DNA from: Candidatus Moranbacteria bacterium GW2011_GWC2_40_12
GTDB taxonomy: Bacteria > Patescibacteriota > Minisyncoccia > Moranbacterales > UBA11712
Assembly: GCA_000995965.1 (NCBI GenBank)
Contig: LBYD01000002.1
Coordinates: forward strand, 71,889-135,888
Length of the DNA stretch: 64,000 bases
Direction of reading: 5' to 3'
The position numbers and the translations under genes were made by a program. Of this stretch, positions 12,501-28,938 are shown in pieces. How positions within the stretch are numbered: position 1 is the stretch's first letter; each line of letters opens with the position of its first letter. The notes under the pieces were generated by a model. That model was not told the DNA's origin. It saw only the letters and a program-made list of their open reading frames with translations, and ran no database searches.

Positions 12501-12836
12501 CTACTCGTCTTTGATGACGAGCTTGAAACCATGCATAAGCATTCCGGCAGGTTCGACGGTGATTTTTTTCTTGTCGGTAAAGAAAGTTTGCATAAGACCG
12601 TTAAAATCCTCGGGGCTTGGCTCGAACTCAAACTTTTTCATCCTGCCCATAAAGGTTGGGCCTTCAAAGATGAGCCGTTGGCCTTCGGCGCTAATGGTAG
12701 CCTCTTTCTTAACCAAGGCCCGGGGAAACCGTTGGACAAAATCCTCCGAATAGGTTTCCGCGCCAGCAACAAGACTTATGCCGATTATCTTTCCGTCTGG
12801 ATTTTTAAGAACTTCTACCTCGATTTCGAGTGGCAT
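12501..12836 (-). CDS. hypothetical protein (paralog A of tandem pair)
   Basis: 111 aa. The motif DGKIIGISLVAGAETYSEDFVQRF aligns with EGKITGFTVIAQKQGEAEFFCKDF of the adjacent gene. Confidence 0.5.
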   Translation of the reverse strand: MPLEIEVEVLKNPDGKIIGISLVAGAETYSEDFVQRFPRALVKKEATISAEGQRLIFEGPTFMGRMKKFEFEPSPEDFNGLMQTFFTDKKKITVEPAGMLMHGFKLVIKDE

Positions 12837-12859
12837 AGATGCCTCCTTATTATATTAAG

Positions 12860-13192
12860 TTAAACATGTACAATCCTAAAACCAATGGTGTCGGGATGCA
12901 ATGGCTGACGAATCATAAATTGACCGCCACCGAGATAGAATTTTTCCAGCTCCTCGTAAACTTTCAGTTTGAGATGAAAAGCAACTTTTGCAGGCTGGAA
13001 AGGACAAGCCAAGTTGACTAAAACCAACGCATCGCCGGCCAGAAAGAAATTGGCCTTGTTAACACTGAACGCCAGACCAAAGTCTTTGCAGAAGAATTCT
13101 GCTTCGCCCTGCTTTTGGGCAATAACCGTGAATCCGGTGATTTTACCCTCGGCATCCCTGTCCAAGATAAAGTCCAGTTTGAATTCATACAT
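12860..13192 (-). CDS. hypothetical protein (paralog B of tandem pair)
   Basis: 110 aa, homologous to the downstream 111-aa protein. Separated from it by 23 nt on the same strand. Confidence 0.5.
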   Translation of the reverse strand: MYEFKLDFILDRDAEGKITGFTVIAQKQGEAEFFCKDFGLAFSVNKANFFLAGDALVLVNLACPFQPAKVAFHLKLKVYEELEKFYLGGGQFMIRQPLHPDTIGFRIVHV

Positions 13193-13398
13193 ACAGTTAT
13201 ATCCTCCTTATAAAATTGGGAAATAACGGCAATTTTGCTTTCAAGATAGAATAAGATAAGCGGAGCTTGGTGTCAAATGCGGATCACTGCGAAGAAAATT
13301 CCATTTTCTTCTTACGGGCCACCGAGCAAACAAACTGCCCGCGGTCAAGGTGGAGATTCATAAAAAATACACCCCGTTAGGGGGCGTATTTATATCTT

Positions 13399-13483
13399 CG
13401 GAGAGGGAGGGATTCGAACCCTCGATACCTTGCGGTATACCCGCTTTCCAAGCGAGCGCACTAGGCCACTATGCGACCTCTCC
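13399..13483 (-). tRNA. tRNA-Ser (anticodon GGA), class II with long variable arm
   Basis: The reverse complement folds as a cloverleaf. Acceptor stem GGAGAGG/CCTCTCC with discriminator G. Anticodon stem CTCGC/GCGGG with loop TTGGAAA (U33-GGA-A37). Long variable arm, T-arm GAGGGTTCGAATCCCTC. No encoded CCA. Confidence 0.8.
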
Positions 13484-13735
13484 AAAATTTTCTAATAATT
13501 TTTTAAACTCATTACCGCCTTTGTAGGATTTTATTTTTCTTTCTCTGGCCAACGCCTCTTTTCTATCCTTAAATTCTTCGAGATATACGACACTGAACGG
13601 ACCCCGATTTTTTGTTGATCTGTTTTTTCCTGTATTATGAAATGCTAAGCGTGTTTTTATATCATTAGTATACCCAATGTAATAACGTCGATCTTTTTCA
13701 CCTTTAATTACGTAAACGTTATGCATAACTTCCAA
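13469..13735 (-). CDS. GIY-YIG nuclease-domain protein (88 aa)
   Basis: VYVIKGEKDRRYYIGYTNDIKTRLAFHNTGK matches the GIY...YIG...R...H core. The last 15 nt, including the TAG stop, are the first 15 nt of the tRNA-Ser gene. Confidence 0.7.
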   Translation of the reverse strand: MEVMHNVYVIKGEKDRRYYIGYTNDIKTRLAFHNTGKNRSTKNRGPFSVVYLEEFKDRKEALARERKIKSYKGGNEFKKLLENFGEVA

Positions 13736-13752
13736 CCCCGCCAGGGCGGGGA

Positions 13753-13775
13753 CTAGGCCACTATGCGACCTCTCC
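13753..13775 (-). repeat. 23-nt duplicate of the 5' end of tRNA-Ser (direct repeat flanking the GIY-YIG ORF)
   Basis: CTAGGCCACTATGCGACCTCTCC occurs at 13461-13483 (tRNA 5' end) and again at 13753-13775. The hairpin CCCCGCCAGGGCGGGG lies between the second copy and the ORF start. Confidence 0.7.
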
Positions 13776-13783
13776 AGTTTTTC

Positions 13784-14113
13784 TTATTTGTCCTTTCTCG
13801 CCGCCCAGTTGAAAGAAAGAAAATATTTCTGCCATAATTGATCGGAAGAAGAATACTCATTTGATCCAAAAAAATAATCGGCAAGCATTTCGCGCATTCG
13901 GGTCAGCTCCTTGAGCCTTCTTCTGTTCTTGGGATCGGAAATTGTCAGTTCCGCCAGCTCCAAGGCGCGTTCGGCCGCGAGATTGCTGAATTCCGCATTT
14001 TTCCCGCGCCAATTTATGGCTCGCCCCGCCTCGCTCCCCACATTCGCCAGCTGTTCGGCAAGCGAAAAATTGTTCCAGCGGCCAGCGGATAAATTTTTGT
14101 GAATTCGGTTCAT
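13784..14113 (-). CDS. hypothetical protein
   Basis: 109-aa ORF overlapping the upstream gene by 4 nt (ATGA). Helical, no recognisable motif. Confidence 0.4.
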   Translation of the reverse strand: MNRIHKNLSAGRWNNFSLAEQLANVGSEAGRAINWRGKNAEFSNLAAERALELAELTISDPKNRRRLKELTRMREMLADYFFGSNEYSSSDQLWQKYFLSFNWAARKDK

Positions 14114-14451
14114 TTTTCAACCAATTTGTTTACTGTTTCGATGATTTTTTTTCTGACTTCCGGATCTTCCACATCCCTGCTCCGGTTATTTTGGGATGGA
14201 CGGATATTGATCATAGAATCAAATTCTACGAATCCTTCTCCCCCTATTCCCGGATATAAATTTATTCCCCAGAGATTTTTCTGCTCCGATCCTTTTTCCA
14301 GAAGAGCGGCCTCAAGATCGGCATGGAGCTCTGCGTCAACAGCCATAATCTTGCCTTTGGTATCGACAACCGCTTTCACAAAATTTCCGAACAATTTCTG
14401 CGCCATTTCATCCAGTTCTCTCAAAGTTATACCGTTTTTTATTATTTGCAT
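14110..14451 (-). CDS. hypothetical protein (possibly DUF5674-like)
   Basis: 113 aa MQIIKNGITLRELDEMAQKLFGNFVKAVVD...NLWGINLYP. Co-transcribed with the downstream 109-aa ORF. Confidence 0.4.
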   Translation of the reverse strand: MQIIKNGITLRELDEMAQKLFGNFVKAVVDTKGKIMAVDAELHADLEAALLEKGSEQKNLWGINLYPGIGGEGFVEFDSMINIRPSQNNRSRDVEDPEVRKKIIETVNKLVEK

Positions 14452-14574
14452 ATTATTTATCTTTTTGTTTAGTAATTTCAGACTAACTGAAAATTAACCA
14501 TAAATCAAGAAAAATAGTCCGTTCCGGAACATTGGAGCGAACTATAGTAATTGTGATTCCAAAATCGAAATCCT

Positions 14575-14636
14575 ATTTCTCCATCTTCCCGATCTCAATC
14601 ATTGTTTTGATGACCGTGTCGGGATTGAGGGATATC
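14575..14636 (-). repeat. 62-bp duplicate of the ppsA 3' end (direct repeat with 15360-15421)
   Basis: The two copies differ at one position (c vs t). The copy at 15360-15421 is the true end of ppsA (..MIEIGKMEK*). The copy at 14575-14636 lies 723 bp downstream, beyond the intervening gene 14635-15348. Confidence 0.8.
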
Positions 14637-15348
14637 AGCGTTCTTCAAAAACAACTTCCTTTCTGCTTATTTCTTTTGTTATTATTTCATTCAAATCCCA
14701 TTCAAGATTATCGTTTTTCAGAAAAACAAACATCGAACCCTCCCAGGAGCGGGTGATTTCATCCGCAGTATGTAAAAAGGTATTGTCCATCAATACTTTT
14801 GTTGACTTGCCCTCTTTCCAGGAACAGAAAAACGGTTTTGAAAAAGAAAGTTTCCAGCCAACTTGATTGTTATCTTTTCCTAATTTTATTTCGGTCACTG
14901 AATCCAAGTCTGCATTGCACTTGAAATCAATTTTACCACTGTCATGATGTGGCAACGAAACCGTTGTTAATATGCTATTTTTACTGTCCCTATGCCCTGG
15001 CAAACTAATAATCTCACTTTTATTTTTTGGAACCGCGCCTGCAAAGGAATCATAAAAGCATCCTGCCGGGCAATCTTGCGCAGCGCCATAAGAAATTTCA
15101 ACCACATAAAATTCTTCGTCGTTGATTTTGCTTTTTGAAGATTTGCATAAATGAATAAGGCTCGGAGGAAATTTTCTTTCTTTTATTACAAACTGGGCTA
15201 TTTCCGGACAGGCGGATAAATTCACGTACGAAGGAGAATCGCCAGTCTTTATTGGTAATTCATTTTTTTTTGTTAATAAAAAATATCCCGCCACGCCTAA
15301 TAAAAGCAAAATTACCAAGATTGACGAAAGTAATAATTTATTTTTCAT
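14635..15348 (-). CDS. secreted/membrane-anchored hypothetical protein
   Basis: 237 aa. N-terminal signal/TM segment LLLSSILVILLLLGVAGYFLL and a Cys-containing extracytoplasmic part. It sits between the two 62-bp direct repeats. Confidence 0.5.
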   Translation of the reverse strand: MKNKLLLSSILVILLLLGVAGYFLLTKKNELPIKTGDSPSYVNLSACPEIAQFVIKERKFPPSLIHLCKSSKSKINDEEFYVVEISYGAAQDCPAGCFYDSFAGAVPKNKSEIISLPGHRDSKNSILTTVSLPHHDSGKIDFKCNADLDSVTEIKLGKDNNQVGWKLSFSKPFFCSWKEGKSTKVLMDNTFLHTADEITRSWEGSMFVFLKNDNLEWDLNEIITKEISRKEVVFEER

Positions 15349-15357
15349 ATAGATAGT

Positions 15358-17847
15358 TTATTTCTCCATCTTCCCGATTTCAATCATTGTTTTGATGACC
15401 GTGTCGGGATTGAGGGATATCGAATCGATTTTTTCTTCAACAAGAAATTTGGCAAAATCAAGAAAGTCAGAAGGCGCCTGGCCGCAAATTCCGACTTTGC
15501 GGCGGGCGCGGTGGGCTTTTGCAATCACCTGCCGGATAAGTTCCTTCACGGCATCGTTCCTTTCGTCGTAAACGTGCGCCACTTTGGCGCTGTCGCGATC
15601 AACTCCGAGAGTAAGTTGCGTCAAATCGTTCGAACCGATGGAAAAACCGTCGAATATTTTGGAAAACTCCGAAGCCAAAATTACGTTGGAAGGAATTTCA
15701 CACATCACATAGACCTGAAGCCCATTTTTGCCACGTTCCAGGCCGTGTATTTTCATCTCCGAGAGCACTTTTTTTCCTTCTTCAACCGTCCGGCAGAATG
15801 GAATCATAGCTTTGAGGTTAGTGAGCCCCATCGCTTCGCGAACTTTTTTGAAGGCCAGGCACTCGAGTCGGAATCCTTCTTTATAGTCCGCGTCGTAGTA
15901 TCTAGATGCTCCCCGCCAGCCAATCATCGGATTCTCTTCGGCCGGCTCAAAACTTTTTCCGCCAATCAAAGTCGCGTATTCATTCGTTTTGAAGTCTGAC
16001 ATCCGCACAATCACGTCTTTTGGCCAAAATGCCGCGCAAATTCGCCCGATACCTTCTGCCAACTTATCTACAAAAAATTCTTCTTTGTTCTTGTAGCCCT
16101 GCGTGAGGTCATTGATTTTCTTTTTTTCTTCTTTATCTTTCACCTTTTCAAAATGGATGAGCGCCATCGGGTGAATTTTGATATATTCCGTGATGATGAA
16201 TTCTTCTCTCGCCAGCCCGACGCCATCATTTGGAATAAAAGTGAGATCAAATGCCTGGTCCGGATTCCCCACATTCATCATGATTTTCGTCCGCCGGCTG
16301 GCGGATGATTTTTTGATGTTCTTGAGATTTGTCGTTTTGATCTCAAATTTCAAAAGGCCGTCGTATATTTTTCCTTCTTCCCCTTCGGCGCAACATACAG
16401 TCACGGGCCGGGTGTCTTTGATGGCGCTTGTCGCGTTTCCGGTTCCAACAATGCACGGAATTCCCAGTTCCCGCGATACAATCGCCGCGTGTGATGTCCG
16501 CCCGCCGGAATTGGTGACGATAGCCGAGGCTATTTTCATAATTGGCTCCCAATCCGGATCCGTCATTTCCGTGACAAGCACTTCGCCTTTTTTGAAATCG
16601 GCGATTTTGGCCACGTCTTTGATCACATTGGCTTTCCCGGCGCCAATTTTACTTCCCACGGCCGCTCCCACGCACAAAATTTTGCTTTTTTCTTTCAAGA
16701 TATATTCCTCCAGCACATTTTTCTTTTTTTGCGATTGGACAGTTTCGGGACGAGCCTGGACGATATATAAATTTTTGTCGCGCCCGTCCTTCGCCCATTC
16801 GATATCCATTGGTTTTTTGTAATGTTCTTCAATCAGTGCTCCCCATCGGGCAAGCTGCAGCGCCTCCTGGTCAGAAAGGCAAAAATTATGCCGGTCTTCC
16901 TGCGAAACAATTGCGTTTTGAGTAGTTGATGTTCCTCCGATGCTATAGACTAGCTTGTTCTCTTTGCTCCCAAGTTTTTTTCCAATGATGGGCTTGAATC
17001 CTTTTTTGAGCATGGGCTTGTGAATAATGAACTCATCAGGATTCACCTTTCCTTTGACGATGTTTTCACCCAAGCCCCAAGATCCGTTAATGATGATAGC
17101 ATCTGAAAAACCCGATTCCGTATCGATCGTGAACATAACCCCGCTTGAAGCCTCATCGGAACGCACCATTTTTTGCACTCCAACTGAAAGAGCGATGCTG
17201 AGCTGATCAAACCCCTTGTCAACACGATAGGATATGGCCCGATCGGTGAAAAGAGAGGAAAAACATTTTTTGATAGATTCTAGAAGCTGATATTCTCCAG
17301 TCACATTGAGATATGACTCCTGTTGGCCGGCAAAAGAGGCATCGACGAGGTCTTCCGCCGTGGCACTGGAGCGAACGGCCACATCAACGCCGCCCGCGAA
17401 GTGGTTGGTATGGTCATTTTTGCTCCAAGAGATGTGAAAACTCTTGTGGGGATTGTATTCCTTGGAAAGCTTGGCGTAGTTTTCCACAATCGCGTTTCGG
17501 AGATCAATTGGAAATTCAGCCGCAAGAATTGCCTGGCGGACCCTGTAGCCATGCTCGGCCAAATTCCGCATATTGCCCGTATCAAGTCCTTTGAGAATTT
17601 TTTTTATCTCGCTATCCAGGCTATTTTGGGTAATGAAATAGCGATAGGCTTCGGCCGTCACCGAAAATCCGTCCGGAACCCGGATGCCTTTCTTTTTGAG
17701 ATTTGAATACATCTCGCCCAGTGATGCATTTTTCCCGCCGACTAGTTCAATGTCTTTGATTCCGGATTCGCGAAACCACACAATAAAATTTTTTTTTCCG
17801 CCCGAGGCTGAAAAGCCATTGGCAAGCATCTTTATTTTTTTTATCAT
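15358..17847 (-). CDS. ppsA: phosphoenolpyruvate synthase (pyruvate, water dikinase)
   Basis: 829 aa with all three domains: PPDK_N (GGKNASLGEM), a central His swivel domain and a C-terminal PEP-binding TIM barrel (..NDLTQLTLGVDRDS..). Confidence 0.95.
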   Translation of the reverse strand: MIKKIKMLANGFSASGGKKNFIVWFRESGIKDIELVGGKNASLGEMYSNLKKKGIRVPDGFSVTAEAYRYFITQNSLDSEIKKILKGLDTGNMRNLAEHGYRVRQAILAAEFPIDLRNAIVENYAKLSKEYNPHKSFHISWSKNDHTNHFAGGVDVAVRSSATAEDLVDASFAGQQESYLNVTGEYQLLESIKKCFSSLFTDRAISYRVDKGFDQLSIALSVGVQKMVRSDEASSGVMFTIDTESGFSDAIIINGSWGLGENIVKGKVNPDEFIIHKPMLKKGFKPIIGKKLGSKENKLVYSIGGTSTTQNAIVSQEDRHNFCLSDQEALQLARWGALIEEHYKKPMDIEWAKDGRDKNLYIVQARPETVQSQKKKNVLEEYILKEKSKILCVGAAVGSKIGAGKANVIKDVAKIADFKKGEVLVTEMTDPDWEPIMKIASAIVTNSGGRTSHAAIVSRELGIPCIVGTGNATSAIKDTRPVTVCCAEGEEGKIYDGLLKFEIKTTNLKNIKKSSASRRTKIMMNVGNPDQAFDLTFIPNDGVGLAREEFIITEYIKIHPMALIHFEKVKDKEEKKKINDLTQGYKNKEEFFVDKLAEGIGRICAAFWPKDVIVRMSDFKTNEYATLIGGKSFEPAEENPMIGWRGASRYYDADYKEGFRLECLAFKKVREAMGLTNLKAMIPFCRTVEEGKKVLSEMKIHGLERGKNGLQVYVMCEIPSNVILASEFSKIFDGFSIGSNDLTQLTLGVDRDSAKVAHVYDERNDAVKELIRQVIAKAHRARRKVGICGQAPSDFLDFAKFLVEEKIDSISLNPDTVIKTMIEIGKMEK

Positions 17848-17940: not shown

Positions 17941-19425
17941 CTAATGGATTTCTTCCACCTTTACCAGGCTCATATGCTCTTTTTTCATATGCGGACGGCC
18001 TGCCACAATCACAATTTTATCCTTTTTTTTGATCAGTTTGTTTTTTTTGAGGGTTGCGATTGATTTATCGAGAAGCTCGTCCAAATCCCGACAATCCGGG
18101 AGAACGAAACTCTCCGCTCCCCAGACCAATGTCAGCTGATTATGCGTTTTTTCTCTGTTGGTCATCACAAATATTCTCTCTTCCGGCCGATGCCGGGCGA
18201 CGATTCTGGCTGTATATCCTGAAACACTGGCCGCGACAATAGCTTTTGCTCCACTGTCCTTCACCAGCTCATGGGCCGACTGGGCAATTGCCGATGAGAC
18301 GGACATTTTCTCATCACCCAAAAATCCGTGCTCAAGATCGTCGAAAGGCGATTCTTCTGTTTTTTCAATTATTTTTCGCATCATTTTGACTGCTTCAATA
18401 GGATATTTCCCGCTAGCCGTTTCCCCGGAAAGCATCACTGCGTCCGCATGGTCGATAACGGCGTTTGAGACATCCGTTACCTCCGCTCGCGTTGGTCTGG
18501 GATTCCGGATCATGGAATCAAGCATTTGAGTCGCTACTATAGCCGGCTTCCCGGCCCGCAAAGACTTTGCCACCATTTCTTTTTGCAGAATGGGAAGTTC
18601 TTCCTGAGGCATTTCAATCCCCAAATCTCCGCGAGCGACCATGATTGCGTCGGATACAGCGAGAATTTCGTTGAAATTTTTTACTGCTTCCCTTCTTTCT
18701 ATTTTCGCGACTATCTGGGGAATCTTTTTTTCGTCGGTTATTTTTTTCCTTATCAGATCCTGAAGGTTTTTTATCTCTTTCGCATTCCGGACAAATGACA
18801 TGGCAATGAAGTCCGCGTCTTGAGAAAGGGCGAAGTCCAAAACTTCTTTGTCCTGGCTGGTGAGAGCCCCAAGCTTTGCTGAAATTCCGGGAATATTGAC
18901 CCCCTTCCTCATCTTAATGACCCCATCGTTTTCAGCGCGGCAATACAAACGCTTTTTGTCCTTTTTGAAAACAGAAAGTTTTATCAAGCCGTCCTCAATC
19001 AGAATTTCATTTCCGACTTTGACAAGCTTAGTCATTTCGGGAAGATCAAGAAATATTATTTTCTGTTTGCCGCTTTTCTTCACGAGCCTGCTGTTCCTGC
19101 CCGCCACCATCACAGTTTCGCCCTTTCTGATTCTTTCTTCCCGGTTCCCAATTGTCCTTATTCTCGGTCCTTGGAGATCCACCATTATTCCAATCGGCCT
19201 TTTTGTTTTCCAACTCACCTCGCGAATGTTCCTGATCGCTTTTTTATGCCACGAAAAATCACCGTGTGAAAAATTTAGCCGGGCGACATCCATTCCCTCT
19301 TTCAGCATTTGAGCTAGCACCGTTTTTTTTTCCGAAACCGGTCCGATAGTGGCGATAATTTTTGTTCGCTTTCCGCCCGAGGCGGATCCGCCTCTGGCGG
19401 ACATTTTTTCTCTTGTCATTTTCAC
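17941..19425 (-). CDS. pyk: pyruvate kinase
   Basis: 494 aa: RTKIIATIGP...NFSHG...MVARGDLG signature regions. Carries an unusual N-terminal extension MKMTREKMSARGGSASGGK. Confidence 0.95.
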   Translation of the reverse strand: MKMTREKMSARGGSASGGKRTKIIATIGPVSEKKTVLAQMLKEGMDVARLNFSHGDFSWHKKAIRNIREVSWKTKRPIGIMVDLQGPRIRTIGNREERIRKGETVMVAGRNSRLVKKSGKQKIIFLDLPEMTKLVKVGNEILIEDGLIKLSVFKKDKKRLYCRAENDGVIKMRKGVNIPGISAKLGALTSQDKEVLDFALSQDADFIAMSFVRNAKEIKNLQDLIRKKITDEKKIPQIVAKIERREAVKNFNEILAVSDAIMVARGDLGIEMPQEELPILQKEMVAKSLRAGKPAIVATQMLDSMIRNPRPTRAEVTDVSNAVIDHADAVMLSGETASGKYPIEAVKMMRKIIEKTEESPFDDLEHGFLGDEKMSVSSAIAQSAHELVKDSGAKAIVAASVSGYTARIVARHRPEERIFVMTNREKTHNQLTLVWGAESFVLPDCRDLDELLDKSIATLKKNKLIKKKDKIVIVAGRPHMKKEHMSLVKVEEIH

Positions 19426-23611: not shown

Positions 23612-24875
23612 GGTCATTCCAGCGTATTCTTTCATCTCCAACGGCCATCGTTTCTTCCGCTCCTTTTCCGGTGACGACCACGACATCTCCGCGCTTTGCA
23701 ATTTGCAGGGCTTTTTTGATGGCCTCTCTCCGATCAAAAATACGCCAGGAATTTTCGTTTTCTTTTTTATGCTTCAAAACTCCAGCAAAAACTTCGTCAA
23801 TAATTTTTTGCGGATCTTCATTATATGGATCTTCATTTGTGACAATGCAAAAGTCTGTGTGCCGAGCCACAACTTCACCCATAATCGGCCGCTTGCCACG
23901 GTCCCTCTCTCCGCAGGAGCCGAATACCGCGATAACTTTCGTATATTCTCCCTTCAGCATACTTATATAATTATATAACTTTTTGAGGGAATCCGGCGTC
24001 ACGGCGTAATCGACGATTATTTCGAGGCCGCGATCGTTTTCGATCCGTTCCATCCTTCCCGGGACACCTTTTATCTTCGAAAGCGCTTCGGAAATTTTGG
24101 GAAGAGCAATGTTTTGCGAAAGTCCTGCGCACGTCGCCGCGAGAACGTTTTCGATATTAAATTCCCCCGGCAAGTTAAGTTGAAAGTTAGTCTCTAGTAT
24201 CTGAAACTTAGTATTTTGTATGCCTAGCTCTATATTTTTCGCCTCAATAAACTTGATTTTTTCAGCCAGAGGCTGATCCGCCTTTGGCGGAGATTTTTGA
24301 TTTTCTAAAAAATATCCATATTTCTCCTTCGCCTCATATTTCAAAAATTCCTCCGCCTTTTCCATCCCCAAATTCACTACTGCCGCCCCATTTTTATTTC
24401 TTGAAATCATTGCAAATAATTTTTCCTTCGCTTTTCTGTATTTTGACATTGTTTCATGATAATCGAGGTGCTCACGCGAAATATTTGTAATAACCGCCAC
24501 GTCAAATTTCACTCCCCAGGCTCGATTTTGGTCCAATGAGTGCGAAGTCACTTCGACAATGATATATTCACATTCCGCCAAAGCCGCTTTTTTCAGGAAT
24601 TCCTGCAGCTTGAAACTGGAAAAAGTCGTGAATTTCGTGTCGTTTACCCACTCTTTATCGCCGATTTTGAAATTGATCGTTGAAGCCATCGCGACTTTGT
24701 GACCGGCCTCTTCAAGGATTTTGGAAATCATCTGGCAAGTCGTCGTCTTCCCGTTCGTTCCCGTCACCCCGATAACTTTCAGTTTCCTCGACGGAAAACC
24801 GTACCAAACATTGGCCAGAATCGCCTGAAATAAATGGTATATATTTTTGATAGATTGAGGAATAAATTTCTTCAT
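23568..24875 (-). CDS. Mur ligase family protein (MurE/MurF-like)
   Basis: VIGVTGTNGKTTT P-loop, a central domain with a DxxNxxHxD-like segment (NISREHLDYH) and a C-terminal Mur ligase domain. Converges on the PAP2 gene with a 44-nt overlap. Confidence 0.8.
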   Translation of the reverse strand: MKKFIPQSIKNIYHLFQAILANVWYGFPSRKLKVIGVTGTNGKTTTCQMISKILEEAGHKVAMASTINFKIGDKEWVNDTKFTTFSSFKLQEFLKKAALAECEYIIVEVTSHSLDQNRAWGVKFDVAVITNISREHLDYHETMSKYRKAKEKLFAMISRNKNGAAVVNLGMEKAEEFLKYEAKEKYGYFLENQKSPPKADQPLAEKIKFIEAKNIELGIQNTKFQILETNFQLNLPGEFNIENVLAATCAGLSQNIALPKISEALSKIKGVPGRMERIENDRGLEIIVDYAVTPDSLKKLYNYISMLKGEYTKVIAVFGSCGERDRGKRPIMGEVVARHTDFCIVTNEDPYNEDPQKIIDEVFAGVLKHKKENENSWRIFDRREAIKKALQIAKRGDVVVVTGKGAEETMAVGDERIRWNDPKVIREVLSEQMKK

Positions 24876-28854: not shown

Positions 28855-28938
28855 TTGTCATCCCCGCGAAAGCGGGGATCCAGGGATTTTACACTTAACG
28901 ATATTCAACTGGATCCCGGATCAAGTCCGGGATGACAA
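28855..28938 (+). promoter_or_regulatory. multi-stem GC-rich structured element in the 5' leader of the TrmB-like regulator gene
   Basis: Outer 9-bp stem TTGTCATCC/GGATGACAA enclosing three hairpins (see finding 6 for the stem sequences). Preceded by tandem TTGACA boxes at 28818-28835. Confidence 0.5.

Follow-up and report, generated by a model that had tools for sequence, protein, structure and literature searches.

A probable mobile nuclease-gene cassette in the tRNA-Ser(GGA) gene of a Moranbacteria genome, and a candidate family of similar cassettes in other bacterial tRNA genes

How a short protein-coding gene might come to end inside an essential tRNA gene, with a fragment of that same tRNA lying on its other side, is the question raised by a locus in Candidatus Moranbacteria bacterium GW2011_GWC2_40_12. 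It is found in a 64,000 nt stretch of contig LBYD01000002.1 (positions 71,889 to 135,888), hereafter the window, within which all unqualified coordinates are given. The gene encodes a predicted nuclease of the GIY-YIG type and, together with a GC-rich hairpin and a duplicated tRNA segment, makes up a cassette of 292 bp. The explanation favoured here, at a probability of about 0.85, is that this cassette is a mobile selfish insertion in a single tRNA-Ser(GGA) gene, in keeping with the original prediction of an inserted mobile element of about 290 bp. Comparison with other genomes further suggests that such cassettes constitute a large, apparently undescribed family of selfish nuclease-gene elements residing in many tRNA genes across bacterial phyla.

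The sole tRNA gene of the 64 kb window, a class II tRNA-Ser(GGA) on the minus strand, was recognised both by ARAGORN (13398-13484) and by the Rfam tRNA model RF00005 (54.7 bits over 13399-13483), in agreement with its initial identification by inspection. Its 5' end is repeated exactly upstream, as had been noticed, over 25 nt rather than the 23 nt reported: the sequence TGGAGAGGTCGCATAGTGGCCTAGT, corresponding to tRNA nucleotides -1 to 24, is present at 13460-13484 and at 13752-13776, giving a spacing of 292 bp. The 24 nt core, which in the downstream copy forms the first 24 nt of the intact tRNA, occurs twice in the 64 kb, against an expectation from shuffled sequences of 0.00. Read 5' to 3' on the minus strand, the locus consists of the old tRNA nucleotides 1-24, the GC hairpin, an anticodon-loop remnant, the nuclease gene and the complete tRNA. 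The hairpin, CCCCGCCCTGGCGGGG (minus strand, 13736-13751), folds into a 6 bp stem with a 4 nt loop, and is followed by TTGGAA, the anticodon-loop sequence found at nucleotides 33-38 of the tRNA. The hairpin therefore substitutes for tRNA nucleotides 25-32, with tRNA-derived sequence continuing beyond it, and the proposal of a simple insertion after nucleotide 23, in the D-loop, had to be abandoned, as did the reading of the upstream copy as a simple truncated duplicate. At the equivalent site, TTGGAAAGCGT in locus L001 is identical over 11 nt to the tRNA of that locus, and locus L002 has TTGGAAAG..GTATG. The upstream partial copy, lying beside the upstream flank, is the remnant of the gene's original 5' end. 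No T run follows the hairpin, ruling it out as an intrinsic terminator.

Between the two tRNA copies, beside the hairpin and as first described, lies an intact open reading frame (ORF), the only one of any length inside the 292 bp insert. The 88 codons originally assigned to it hold if translation begins at a TTG at 13735 (13469-13735), the likelier start being the ATG at 13726, which yields 85 amino acids and agrees with the public gene call P0001; the purine run GGAAG immediately before it, within 13727-13735, may be a ribosome-binding site. Having no stop codon of its own, the ORF borrows the TAG at 13469-13471 (tRNA nucleotides 13-15) from the tRNA D-arm. The overlap with the first 15 nt of the tRNA, ending in this TAG, was thus correctly recognised, except that it comprises four codons (G-E-V-A) and the stop, not five codons.

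That this arrangement arose by insertion is indicated by the same tRNA locus in related genomes. Metagenome contigs were scanned with the 36 nt anticodon and variable arm of the tRNA, yielding 96 loci, 86 of which had enough upstream sequence to be informative. A GIY-YIG ORF abuts the tRNA 5' end in eight of these, while about 70 are empty, so that vacant sites, whose absence from all relatives had been named as grounds for doubting an insertion, are in fact common; in 20 of the empty loci the 24 nt 5' segment is identical to that of the window. Synteny is evident in more than 12 loci from close relatives, in which the PPDK-like gene (window 15358-17847) is situated just upstream of the tRNA, with 85-89% amino acid identity where the gene is complete on the contig, and in several of which the PfkB gene (75-78% identity) is just downstream. 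Six such relatives (L092, L102, L147, L149, L170 and L176), having a whole-length PPDK-like gene of 86-89% amino acid identity, possess an uninterrupted tRNA, and in a seven-locus alignment these six are colinear up to the tRNA, through the upstream gene's terminator hairpin and a stretch resembling a promoter. The syntenic locus L152 harbours a clean insert of about 290 bp after the first 24 nt of the tRNA, built to the same design as that of the window: CCCCGCC-TT-GGCGGGG, TTGGGAAG, ORF and tRNA. Its counterpart of the upstream copy occupies the exact position of the tRNA 5' end in the six empty relatives, and differs from the live tRNA by two substitutions, as expected of a dead remnant. 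The protein it encodes has only 59% amino acid identity to that of the window, which argues for separate acquisition or fast evolution, rather than simple shared ancestry, as the probable origin of the two inserts.

These comparisons bear on the alternative that the nuclease is a domesticated host gene, co-transcribed with the tRNA and acting in tRNA-locus maintenance, repair or RNA metabolism, such that the upstream tRNA fragment and hairpin represent a leader or regulatory element and not an insertion scar. Every one of the 24 contigs of the species has the arrangement, the ORF is undamaged and shows purifying selection, and its coupling to a tRNA on the same strand is both strict and very tight, all of which would suit a host function; most close relatives with the same tRNA and synteny nevertheless have no such ORF, and further evidence against this improbable explanation comes from the distribution of the cassette among other tRNAs and hosts.

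A word-indexed protein search identified 13 relatives of the window protein, nine of which end in G-x-V/F-A, the translated 5' end of tRNA-Ser. Two of the 13 (P0002 and P0003) had been miscalled, with the pseudo-tRNA and hairpin translated as protein (for instance, MEGSHSGLVPAVAGLES); gene call P0007 likewise extends the GIY-YIG ORF upstream, an annotation artefact able to mask the architecture. A family-alignment scan of one genome per species (GTDB) confirmed 332 loci, the best 80 of which were analysed. A tRNA gene on the same strand is present ≤150 nt from the ORF in 72 of these 80, and one on the opposite strand in none, when the density of tRNAs in the remaining flanks (0.117 per kb) predicts about three loci by chance. 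Copies of the ORF next to other tRNAs, a search for which had been suggested within the genome, are thus found across species. About 17 anticodon types are represented (Ser GGA/CGA/TGA/GCT, Tyr, Gly CCC/GCC/TCC, Pro GGG/CGG/TGG, Glu CTC/TTC, Thr, His, Lys and Asp), Thr TGT being left out of this count because it is a neighbouring tRNA in L022 and not the one linked to the ORF. Judged by record titles, the hosts include many Patescibacteria lineages, Bacteroidota, Ignavibacteria, Planctomycetes, Omnitrophota and others.

This recurrence effectively refutes the idea that the locus involves no dedicated mobility, but is a local tandem duplication that trapped an unrelated ORF, the remnant of an island or an intron-like RNA element. 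Slippage can produce direct repeats on either side of an ORF, islands with an integrase commonly integrate at tRNA genes, and the tRNA-Ser locus is itself variable, with five extra ORFs. Against this, the same combination of ORF family, hairpin and partial tRNA is found at about 17 tRNA types and in 72 of 80 loci, the 292 bp insert contains a single ORF and neither an integrase nor a transposase, and the repeat corresponds to the 5' end of the tRNA and not the 3' end. An Rfam search at E ≤ 1 over 13200-14000 returned the tRNA only, with no ribozyme, and the insert is too short for an intron of group I or II; a group I intron fails in any case for want of a ribozyme core in this search and because exon sequence is duplicated.

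Within the window, the tRNA-linked ORF is the single match of the family hidden Markov model to all six-frame ORFs. A scan of IMG/VR found no family member, and tblastn against phages and plasmids gave distant YazA-type matches only (34-42% identical), leaving carriage by phage unsupported. Full-text literature searches, outside whose coverage most subscription journals fall, found no description of tRNA-linked GIY-YIG cassettes, the closest accounts being those of the Ssn nucleases and of T4 SegB. In a basal clade of close homologues (L066, L078, L083 and L084, from Bacteroidetes, Falkowbacteria and Moranbacteria records) there is neither an adjacent tRNA nor the hairpin motif, so linkage to a tRNA marks a sub-clade and not every close homologue.

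Two layouts are found among the tRNA-linked loci. The 'down' layout (51 ORFs, including that of the window) has a dead 5' tRNA copy, the ORF and then the live tRNA, the ORF often ending at a stop inside the latter. The 'up' layout (16 ORFs) has the live tRNA, the ORF and then the dead copy; the ATG follows 0-4 nt after the tRNA in most cases, and the ORF terminates in the D-arm of the second copy, which runs on to its 3' end. Both have exactly one intact tRNA copy, with a partial second copy on the far side of the ORF. Integration at the 5' side, previously considered unusual, is consequently a correct description of the window but no oddity, a 3'-side layout also existing in the family. A 3' pseudo-half downstream of the live tRNA was seen in only one of 54 'down' loci, such that a model in which the cassette brings a whole replacement tRNA is unfit for the window type and fits several 'up' loci. 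Several 'up' loci (L016, L028, L057, L072, L073, L030 and L011) have a second hairpin-bearing pseudo-half upstream of the live tRNA, giving the order hairpin, tRNA, ORF, hairpin within a split outer tRNA; here the cassette appears, from its organisation, to carry a whole replacement tRNA.

Loci comprising a tRNA inside a tRNA also occur in the metagenome without an ORF (L093, L118, L144, L157 and L168, with L093, L118 and L144 the clearest). Their outer tRNA-Ser is decayed and interrupted at the anticodon loop by an insert made up of a leader of approximately 55-75 nt, then an entire tRNA-Ser(GGA), then a trailer of approximately 10-25 nt (8 nt in L118), with the outer 3' half at the end. These may be remnants or non-autonomous relatives of the cassette. 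In L097 and L099, the T-arm of a first tRNA-Ser is broken by about 34 nt (CCCGCCCCGCACC...GGTGGG) and a second, different tRNA-Ser(GGA) follows the broken copy, again with no ORF.

Almost every dead copy is broken up by between one and four units of the form YCCCGC(C)-N2-7-(G)GCGGGR. Searching with a regular expression placed a unit ≤130 nt upstream of 33 of the 51 'down' ORFs, as against downstream of two of the 51, and downstream of 15 of the 16 'up' ORFs; distant flanks yielded eight matches in 273 kb. In 127 units gathered with a less strict pattern, one of the stem pairs is C:G 67 times and T:A 37 times, and a second alternates between C:G, T:A and G:C, covariation which implies that base pairing itself is conserved. 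Compensation can be seen even within a single locus, L001 having both TCCCGC..GCGGGA and CCCCGC..GCGGGG. The position of the unit varies: it lies between anticodon nucleotides 35 and 36 in several Ser-GGA and Tyr loci, replaces exactly the 17 nt anticodon arm in Thr and Gly loci, replaces nucleotides 23-33 or 25-32 in Ser-GCT loci and the clade of the window, and sits in the D-loop or T-loop in further loci. As one hairpin sequence accompanies different tRNAs in different phyla, it belongs to the cassette and not to the tRNA.

Several lines of evidence point to movement of the cassette between genomes. In a neighbour-joining tree, clades of the protein track tRNA identity and not host label: the nearest neighbour shares tRNA amino acid identity for 58 of 74 proteins, compared with 17 expected, a value reached in none of 1000 shuffles, and taxon labels differ in 45 of those 58 pairs. 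For instance, Glu-CTC cassettes pair Planctomycetia with Omnitrophota, and Pro cassettes Bacteroidota with Microgenomates. In L123 and L143, the live tRNA has the 5' acceptor sequence GGAAGGG opposite CCTCTCC, with one mismatch and one wobble, whereas the GGAGAGG of the dead copy pairs with CCTCTCC perfectly; GGAAGGG is the acceptor sequence of related genomes. On this pattern of pairing, the live tRNA resembles a chimera, its 5' segment imported and its 3' part resident, which an element-borne replacement segment would predict, and which fits the original suggestion that the tRNA is kept intact by a second 5' segment. The dead copies of L045, L046 and L062 each consist of a well-formed 5' half, but that of another tRNA-Ser. 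Signs of decay and amplification include a tandem array with a truncated ORF (L001), second degenerate ORFs in several loci and apparent ORF-less remnants (L093, L118 and L157). In the literature, GIY-YIG proteins are listed among the genes predicted to have been donated by Patescibacteria to other bacteria (PMC12455944). A domesticated host gene would account poorly for some 17 tRNA types and lineages that cross phyla, for degenerate copies, tandem copies and ORF-less remnants, or for chimeric tRNAs and foreign pseudo-copies.

The protein matches the Pfam GIY-YIG family PF01541 over its whole length (61.7 bits, cut-off 22.6; E = 8.1e-17), leaving the catalytic domain only, 85 amino acids in all, with no DNA-binding domain; no NCBIfam model exceeds its cut-off on it. 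Searches of the PDB with a family profile gave the UPF0213 proteins BH0048 (1zg2; E = 1e-15) and EF2693 (1ywl; E = 2.4e-13), then Slx1 at about 1e-3, with I-TevI and UvrC weaker still. An AlphaFold model (pLDDT 87.8) has the order strand-strand-helix-strand-helix-helix expected of a GIY-YIG domain, and its top Foldseek matches are 1zg2 and 1ywl (ranks 1 and 2), Slx1 and I-TevI. Residues G18, R26, H30, E62 and K66 are invariant in 91 family members, Y5 and Y16 are present in 90 of the 91, and the aligned cores of all 91 are free of in-frame stops; nuclease activity, as predicted from these invariant catalytic residues and uninterrupted frames, has very probably been maintained by selection. On its sequence, the protein is a minimal single-domain GIY-YIG protein of the UPF0213/Slx1 type and not a classical multi-domain homing endonuclease, and the initial statement that its size is typical of homing endonucleases does not stand.

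The UPF0213 and bacterial Slx1-like proteins (B. subtilis YazA and E. coli YhbQ; 1zg2 and 1ywl) thus provide the best matches in sequence and structure and share the same minimal architecture, although they are thought of as housekeeping or repair proteins. That the closest structures are of this type, and not phage homing enzymes, can be counted in favour of a host function, as can the fusion of the lineage to a TrmH-like tRNA methyltransferase noted by Bujnicki and colleagues (PMC1564403). The one UPF0213-type locus inspected, that of a homologue on a Sphingomonas plasmid (L181) considered as an Ssn-type candidate, has nrdR and an RNA methyltransferase as neighbours and shows neither a tRNA nor the hairpin, nor flanking Ssn-related motifs (SRM).

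The Ssn nucleases are the only characterised single-domain GIY-YIG enzymes with sequence specificity. SsnA of Neisseria meningitidis is a single-domain protein of 94 amino acids with catalytic residues Y6, Y17 and E64; these nucleases bind a hairpin with the stem core TCCCGC/GCGGGA and cut single-stranded DNA only, a few nucleotides 5' of the hairpin, and their genes are flanked by hairpins, leading the authors to liken NTS-ssnA-NTS to an insertion sequence (PMC11893778). The likeness to the cassette (Ssn family, CDD cd10448) extends to a bare domain of similar length (85 and 94 amino acids), to catalytic Y5, Y16 and E62 at nearly the same positions and to a gene-linked GC hairpin, here with the core YCCCGC/GCGGGR and in the NTS CGTCATTCCCGCG-MAV-GCGGGAATCYRG. 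By contrast, the cassette hairpin lies within a dead copy of a tRNA and in most cases on just one side, the gene is joined to a live tRNA, and the protein is closest by sequence to UPF0213 structures; tRNA is not mentioned in the Ssn paper (PMC11893778). Elsewhere in the window, an inverted hairpin pair at 28856-28883 (plus strand, TGTCATCCCCGCGAAAGCGGGGATCCAG) and 28909-28937 (minus strand, TGTCATCCCGGACTTGATCCGGGATCCAG) matches the SRM regular expression and closely resembles the Neisseria NTS; it is intergenic, with no GIY-YIG gene beside it.

As to how the cassette spreads, recombination through tRNA homology, stimulated by the nuclease, is the mechanism somewhat favoured here. The tRNA-derived segments at the two ends would act as homology arms, through which, following DNA exchange, homologous recombination or gene conversion could copy the cassette into the corresponding tRNA gene of a different genome. 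Since tRNA genes are near-identical across species, a cassette could recombine into the matching gene whatever its neighbours, and this route would on its own account for the attachment of each lineage to one tRNA identity. By making a break, the nuclease would raise the frequency of recombination. In the manner of Ssn, it might bind its own hairpin in DNA that is single-stranded and make its cut at a distance of a few nucleotides, within sequence homologous to the tRNA, generating near the hairpin a recombinogenic end able to pair with any copy of that tRNA gene; because a hairpin with the Ssn core travels with the ORF, such an action is slightly favoured by this analogy over cutting of the intact duplex tRNA gene. 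The host loses nothing, a full tRNA being left downstream of the cassette. Expression of the ORF would come from read-through of tRNA transcription, with cleavage by RNase P at tRNA position +1 removing the last four codons and the stop to leave a stop-less message, and full-length protein arising only from unprocessed precursor. With the stop codon inside the tRNA, little protein is probably made, and in amounts tied to processing of the tRNA. The 'up' loci would yield an mRNA beginning at or beside the AUG once the tRNA 3' end has been processed.

A different use of the nuclease is exemplified by GIY-YIG homing genes such as the Seg and Mob genes of T-even phages and I-TevI, selfish genes between or within conserved genes that likewise vary in presence between relatives and spread by break-induced gene conversion with co-conversion of flanks. 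If the cassette were a classical homing gene, as first proposed, its product would make a double-stranded break in the intact tRNA-Ser(GGA) gene and repair would copy the cassette from the filled allele, the hairpin-substituted upstream copy representing a cleavage-resistant remnant. T4 SegB, a GIY-YIG endonuclease acting in the region of the phage tRNA gene cluster, provides a precedent (PMC2330249). Homing would also account for presence and absence among syntenic relatives, for protein clades following tRNA identity, for a chimeric tRNA in L123, as the product of a co-conversion tract ending within the tRNA, and for the hairpin always lying in, or substituting for, the D-arm or anticodon arm of the dead copy, as though it had wiped out a site of recognition. 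Nevertheless this explanation is unlikely, if a serious contender. GIY-YIG homing endonucleases, Seg, Mob and I-TevI included, have an added, separate DNA-binding domain and are about 200-270 amino acids in length, a domain the 85 amino acid cassette protein does not possess. These homing genes are phage-borne, leave no partial duplicate of the target and no signature hairpin, and gain immunity through target polymorphism or disruption, whereas the cassette regenerates its target: an unaltered and presumably cleavable tRNA lies beside the ORF, and the same tRNA is found filled and empty, leaving no evident immunity, on the assumption that the target of the nuclease lies within the tRNA. Finally, erasure of a target would not by itself require one hairpin sequence across all tRNA identities.

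A number of observations weigh against mobile insertion, or against the mechanism proposed for it. All 24 contigs of the window's species, recovered by exact-protein look-ups of both flanking ORFs, are filled, hence there is no within-species polymorphism, and identical tRNA sequences occur both filled and empty, where classical homing would have insertion destroy the target. The repeats of L001 and L072 take in 6-11 nt of tRNA leader and so look like duplicated host sequence, not like an arm brought in from elsewhere. The 80 analysed loci, the best of 332 retrieved with one peptide pattern, are biased to one clade, the hairpin regular expression recovered its motif in only 33 of 51 'down' loci, and the tree was built by neighbour-joining on about 80 residues, with taxon labels taken from the titles of metagenome-assembled genomes. 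The SRM regular expression (HGTCWY..YYVSBRH..WNVSBRG..RNCYNB) has three matches in 389 kb of loci, of which one overlaps an element hairpin, the first hairpin of L045. A consensus scan found no sigma-70-like promoter on the minus strand directly upstream of the upstream copy. The activity of the nuclease, its substrate and its role in transfer are all deduced indirectly, and the weakest step is that a cut on the donor side does not by itself account for spread.

Mobile insertion of the cassette also invites comparison with other elements that use tRNA genes or short palindromes. Integrase-type islands insert in tRNA genes, carry a restoring tRNA segment and leave a partial tRNA repeat; crossover in them frequently takes place in the anticodon loop or the T loop. 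They differ in extending over kilobases, encoding an integrase and duplicating the 3' part of the tRNA, whereas the cassette has 292 bp, a hydrolytic nuclease as its only enzyme with no recombinase, and either the 5' or the 3' part duplicated. Rickettsia palindromic elements, and REP and BIME sequences with their RAYTs, resemble the cassette in being short GC-rich palindromes polymorphic in presence and absence, although RAYTs are HUH transposases and not GIY-YIG proteins. The window itself contains palindromes of the form TCCGCC-N3-4-GGCGGA, 15-16 nt in length, in frame within protein genes (16290-16305, 19372-19401 and 24277-24291). The unit in the PPDK-like gene adds SASR, and is lacking in 12 of 13 aligned relatives, being present only in L148, while in pyruvate kinase the N-terminus gains SARGGSASGG from two units in tandem. 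These look like tiny mobile palindromes of the kind found in Rickettsia.

The features of the locus are collected in Table 1. Five ORFs in all (12501-13192 and 13784-15348) are distributed over the two sides of the tRNA, between the PPDK-like gene and PfkB, one of them belonging to DUF5674 and the other four to no known family; in the syntenic L097, L140 and L148 the tRNA is alone there, so the tRNA-Ser locus is variable beyond the cassette itself. In another contig of the same species (L184, positions 1-269; GCA_001000395.1, LCHJ01000005.1), the sequence begins with an opposite-strand gene fragment that by eye resembles the C-terminus of an rve-type (DDE) transposase. This fragment is approximately 90 nt downstream of the expected position of the tRNA, and the tRNA and cassette are accordingly missing from the contig.

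Table 1. Coordinates, strand and basis of assignment for features at the tRNA-Ser(GGA) locus of the window.
Feature	Position	Strand	Basis
Intact tRNA-Ser(GGA), class II, no encoded CCA	13399..13483	-	ARAGORN and Rfam RF00005
GIY-YIG nuclease ORF, 85 amino acids	13469..13726	-	Pfam PF01541, PDB profile match, AlphaFold model
TTGGAAGTT, anticodon-loop remnant directly before the ATG	13727..13735	-	Comparison with the tRNA and with L001 and L002
GC hairpin CCCCGCC-CT-GGCGGGG	13736..13751	-	Read directly and folded
Partial upstream tRNA-Ser copy (tRNA nucleotides -1 to 24)	13752..13776	-	Exact 25 nt repeat of 13460-13484
Possible intrinsic terminator after the tRNA, CGCCCC-CTAAC-GGGGTG and T run	13362..13386	-	By eye; weak, not called by consensus scan

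A broader proposal, put forward tentatively and rather on the doubtful side, is that these cassettes represent a new class of autonomous element, in which a nuclease of about 85 amino acids recognises its own GC hairpin in single-stranded DNA, the ends are pieces of the target tRNA, and tRNA genes are overwritten with the element and a replacement tRNA segment or whole tRNA, the conservation of tRNAs allowing phyla to be crossed. If true, one 85 amino acid protein and one hairpin would suffice to invade essential, single-copy tRNA genes without killing the host, and such invasion would span many bacterial phyla, especially the genome-reduced Patescibacteria. Mobility and tRNA loci would then supply a biological context for minimal GIY-YIG proteins. 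The characterised minimal members, the Ssn nucleases, are of interest as tools for cutting single-stranded DNA, and the family offers dozens of natural combinations of protein, hairpin and tRNA in which new specificities might be sought. For annotation, partial tRNA copies and ORFs reading into tRNAs are likely to be miscalled, and in assembly the repeats can break contigs. A single odd locus may thus be an entry point to a widespread family of elements built on a minimal nuclease.

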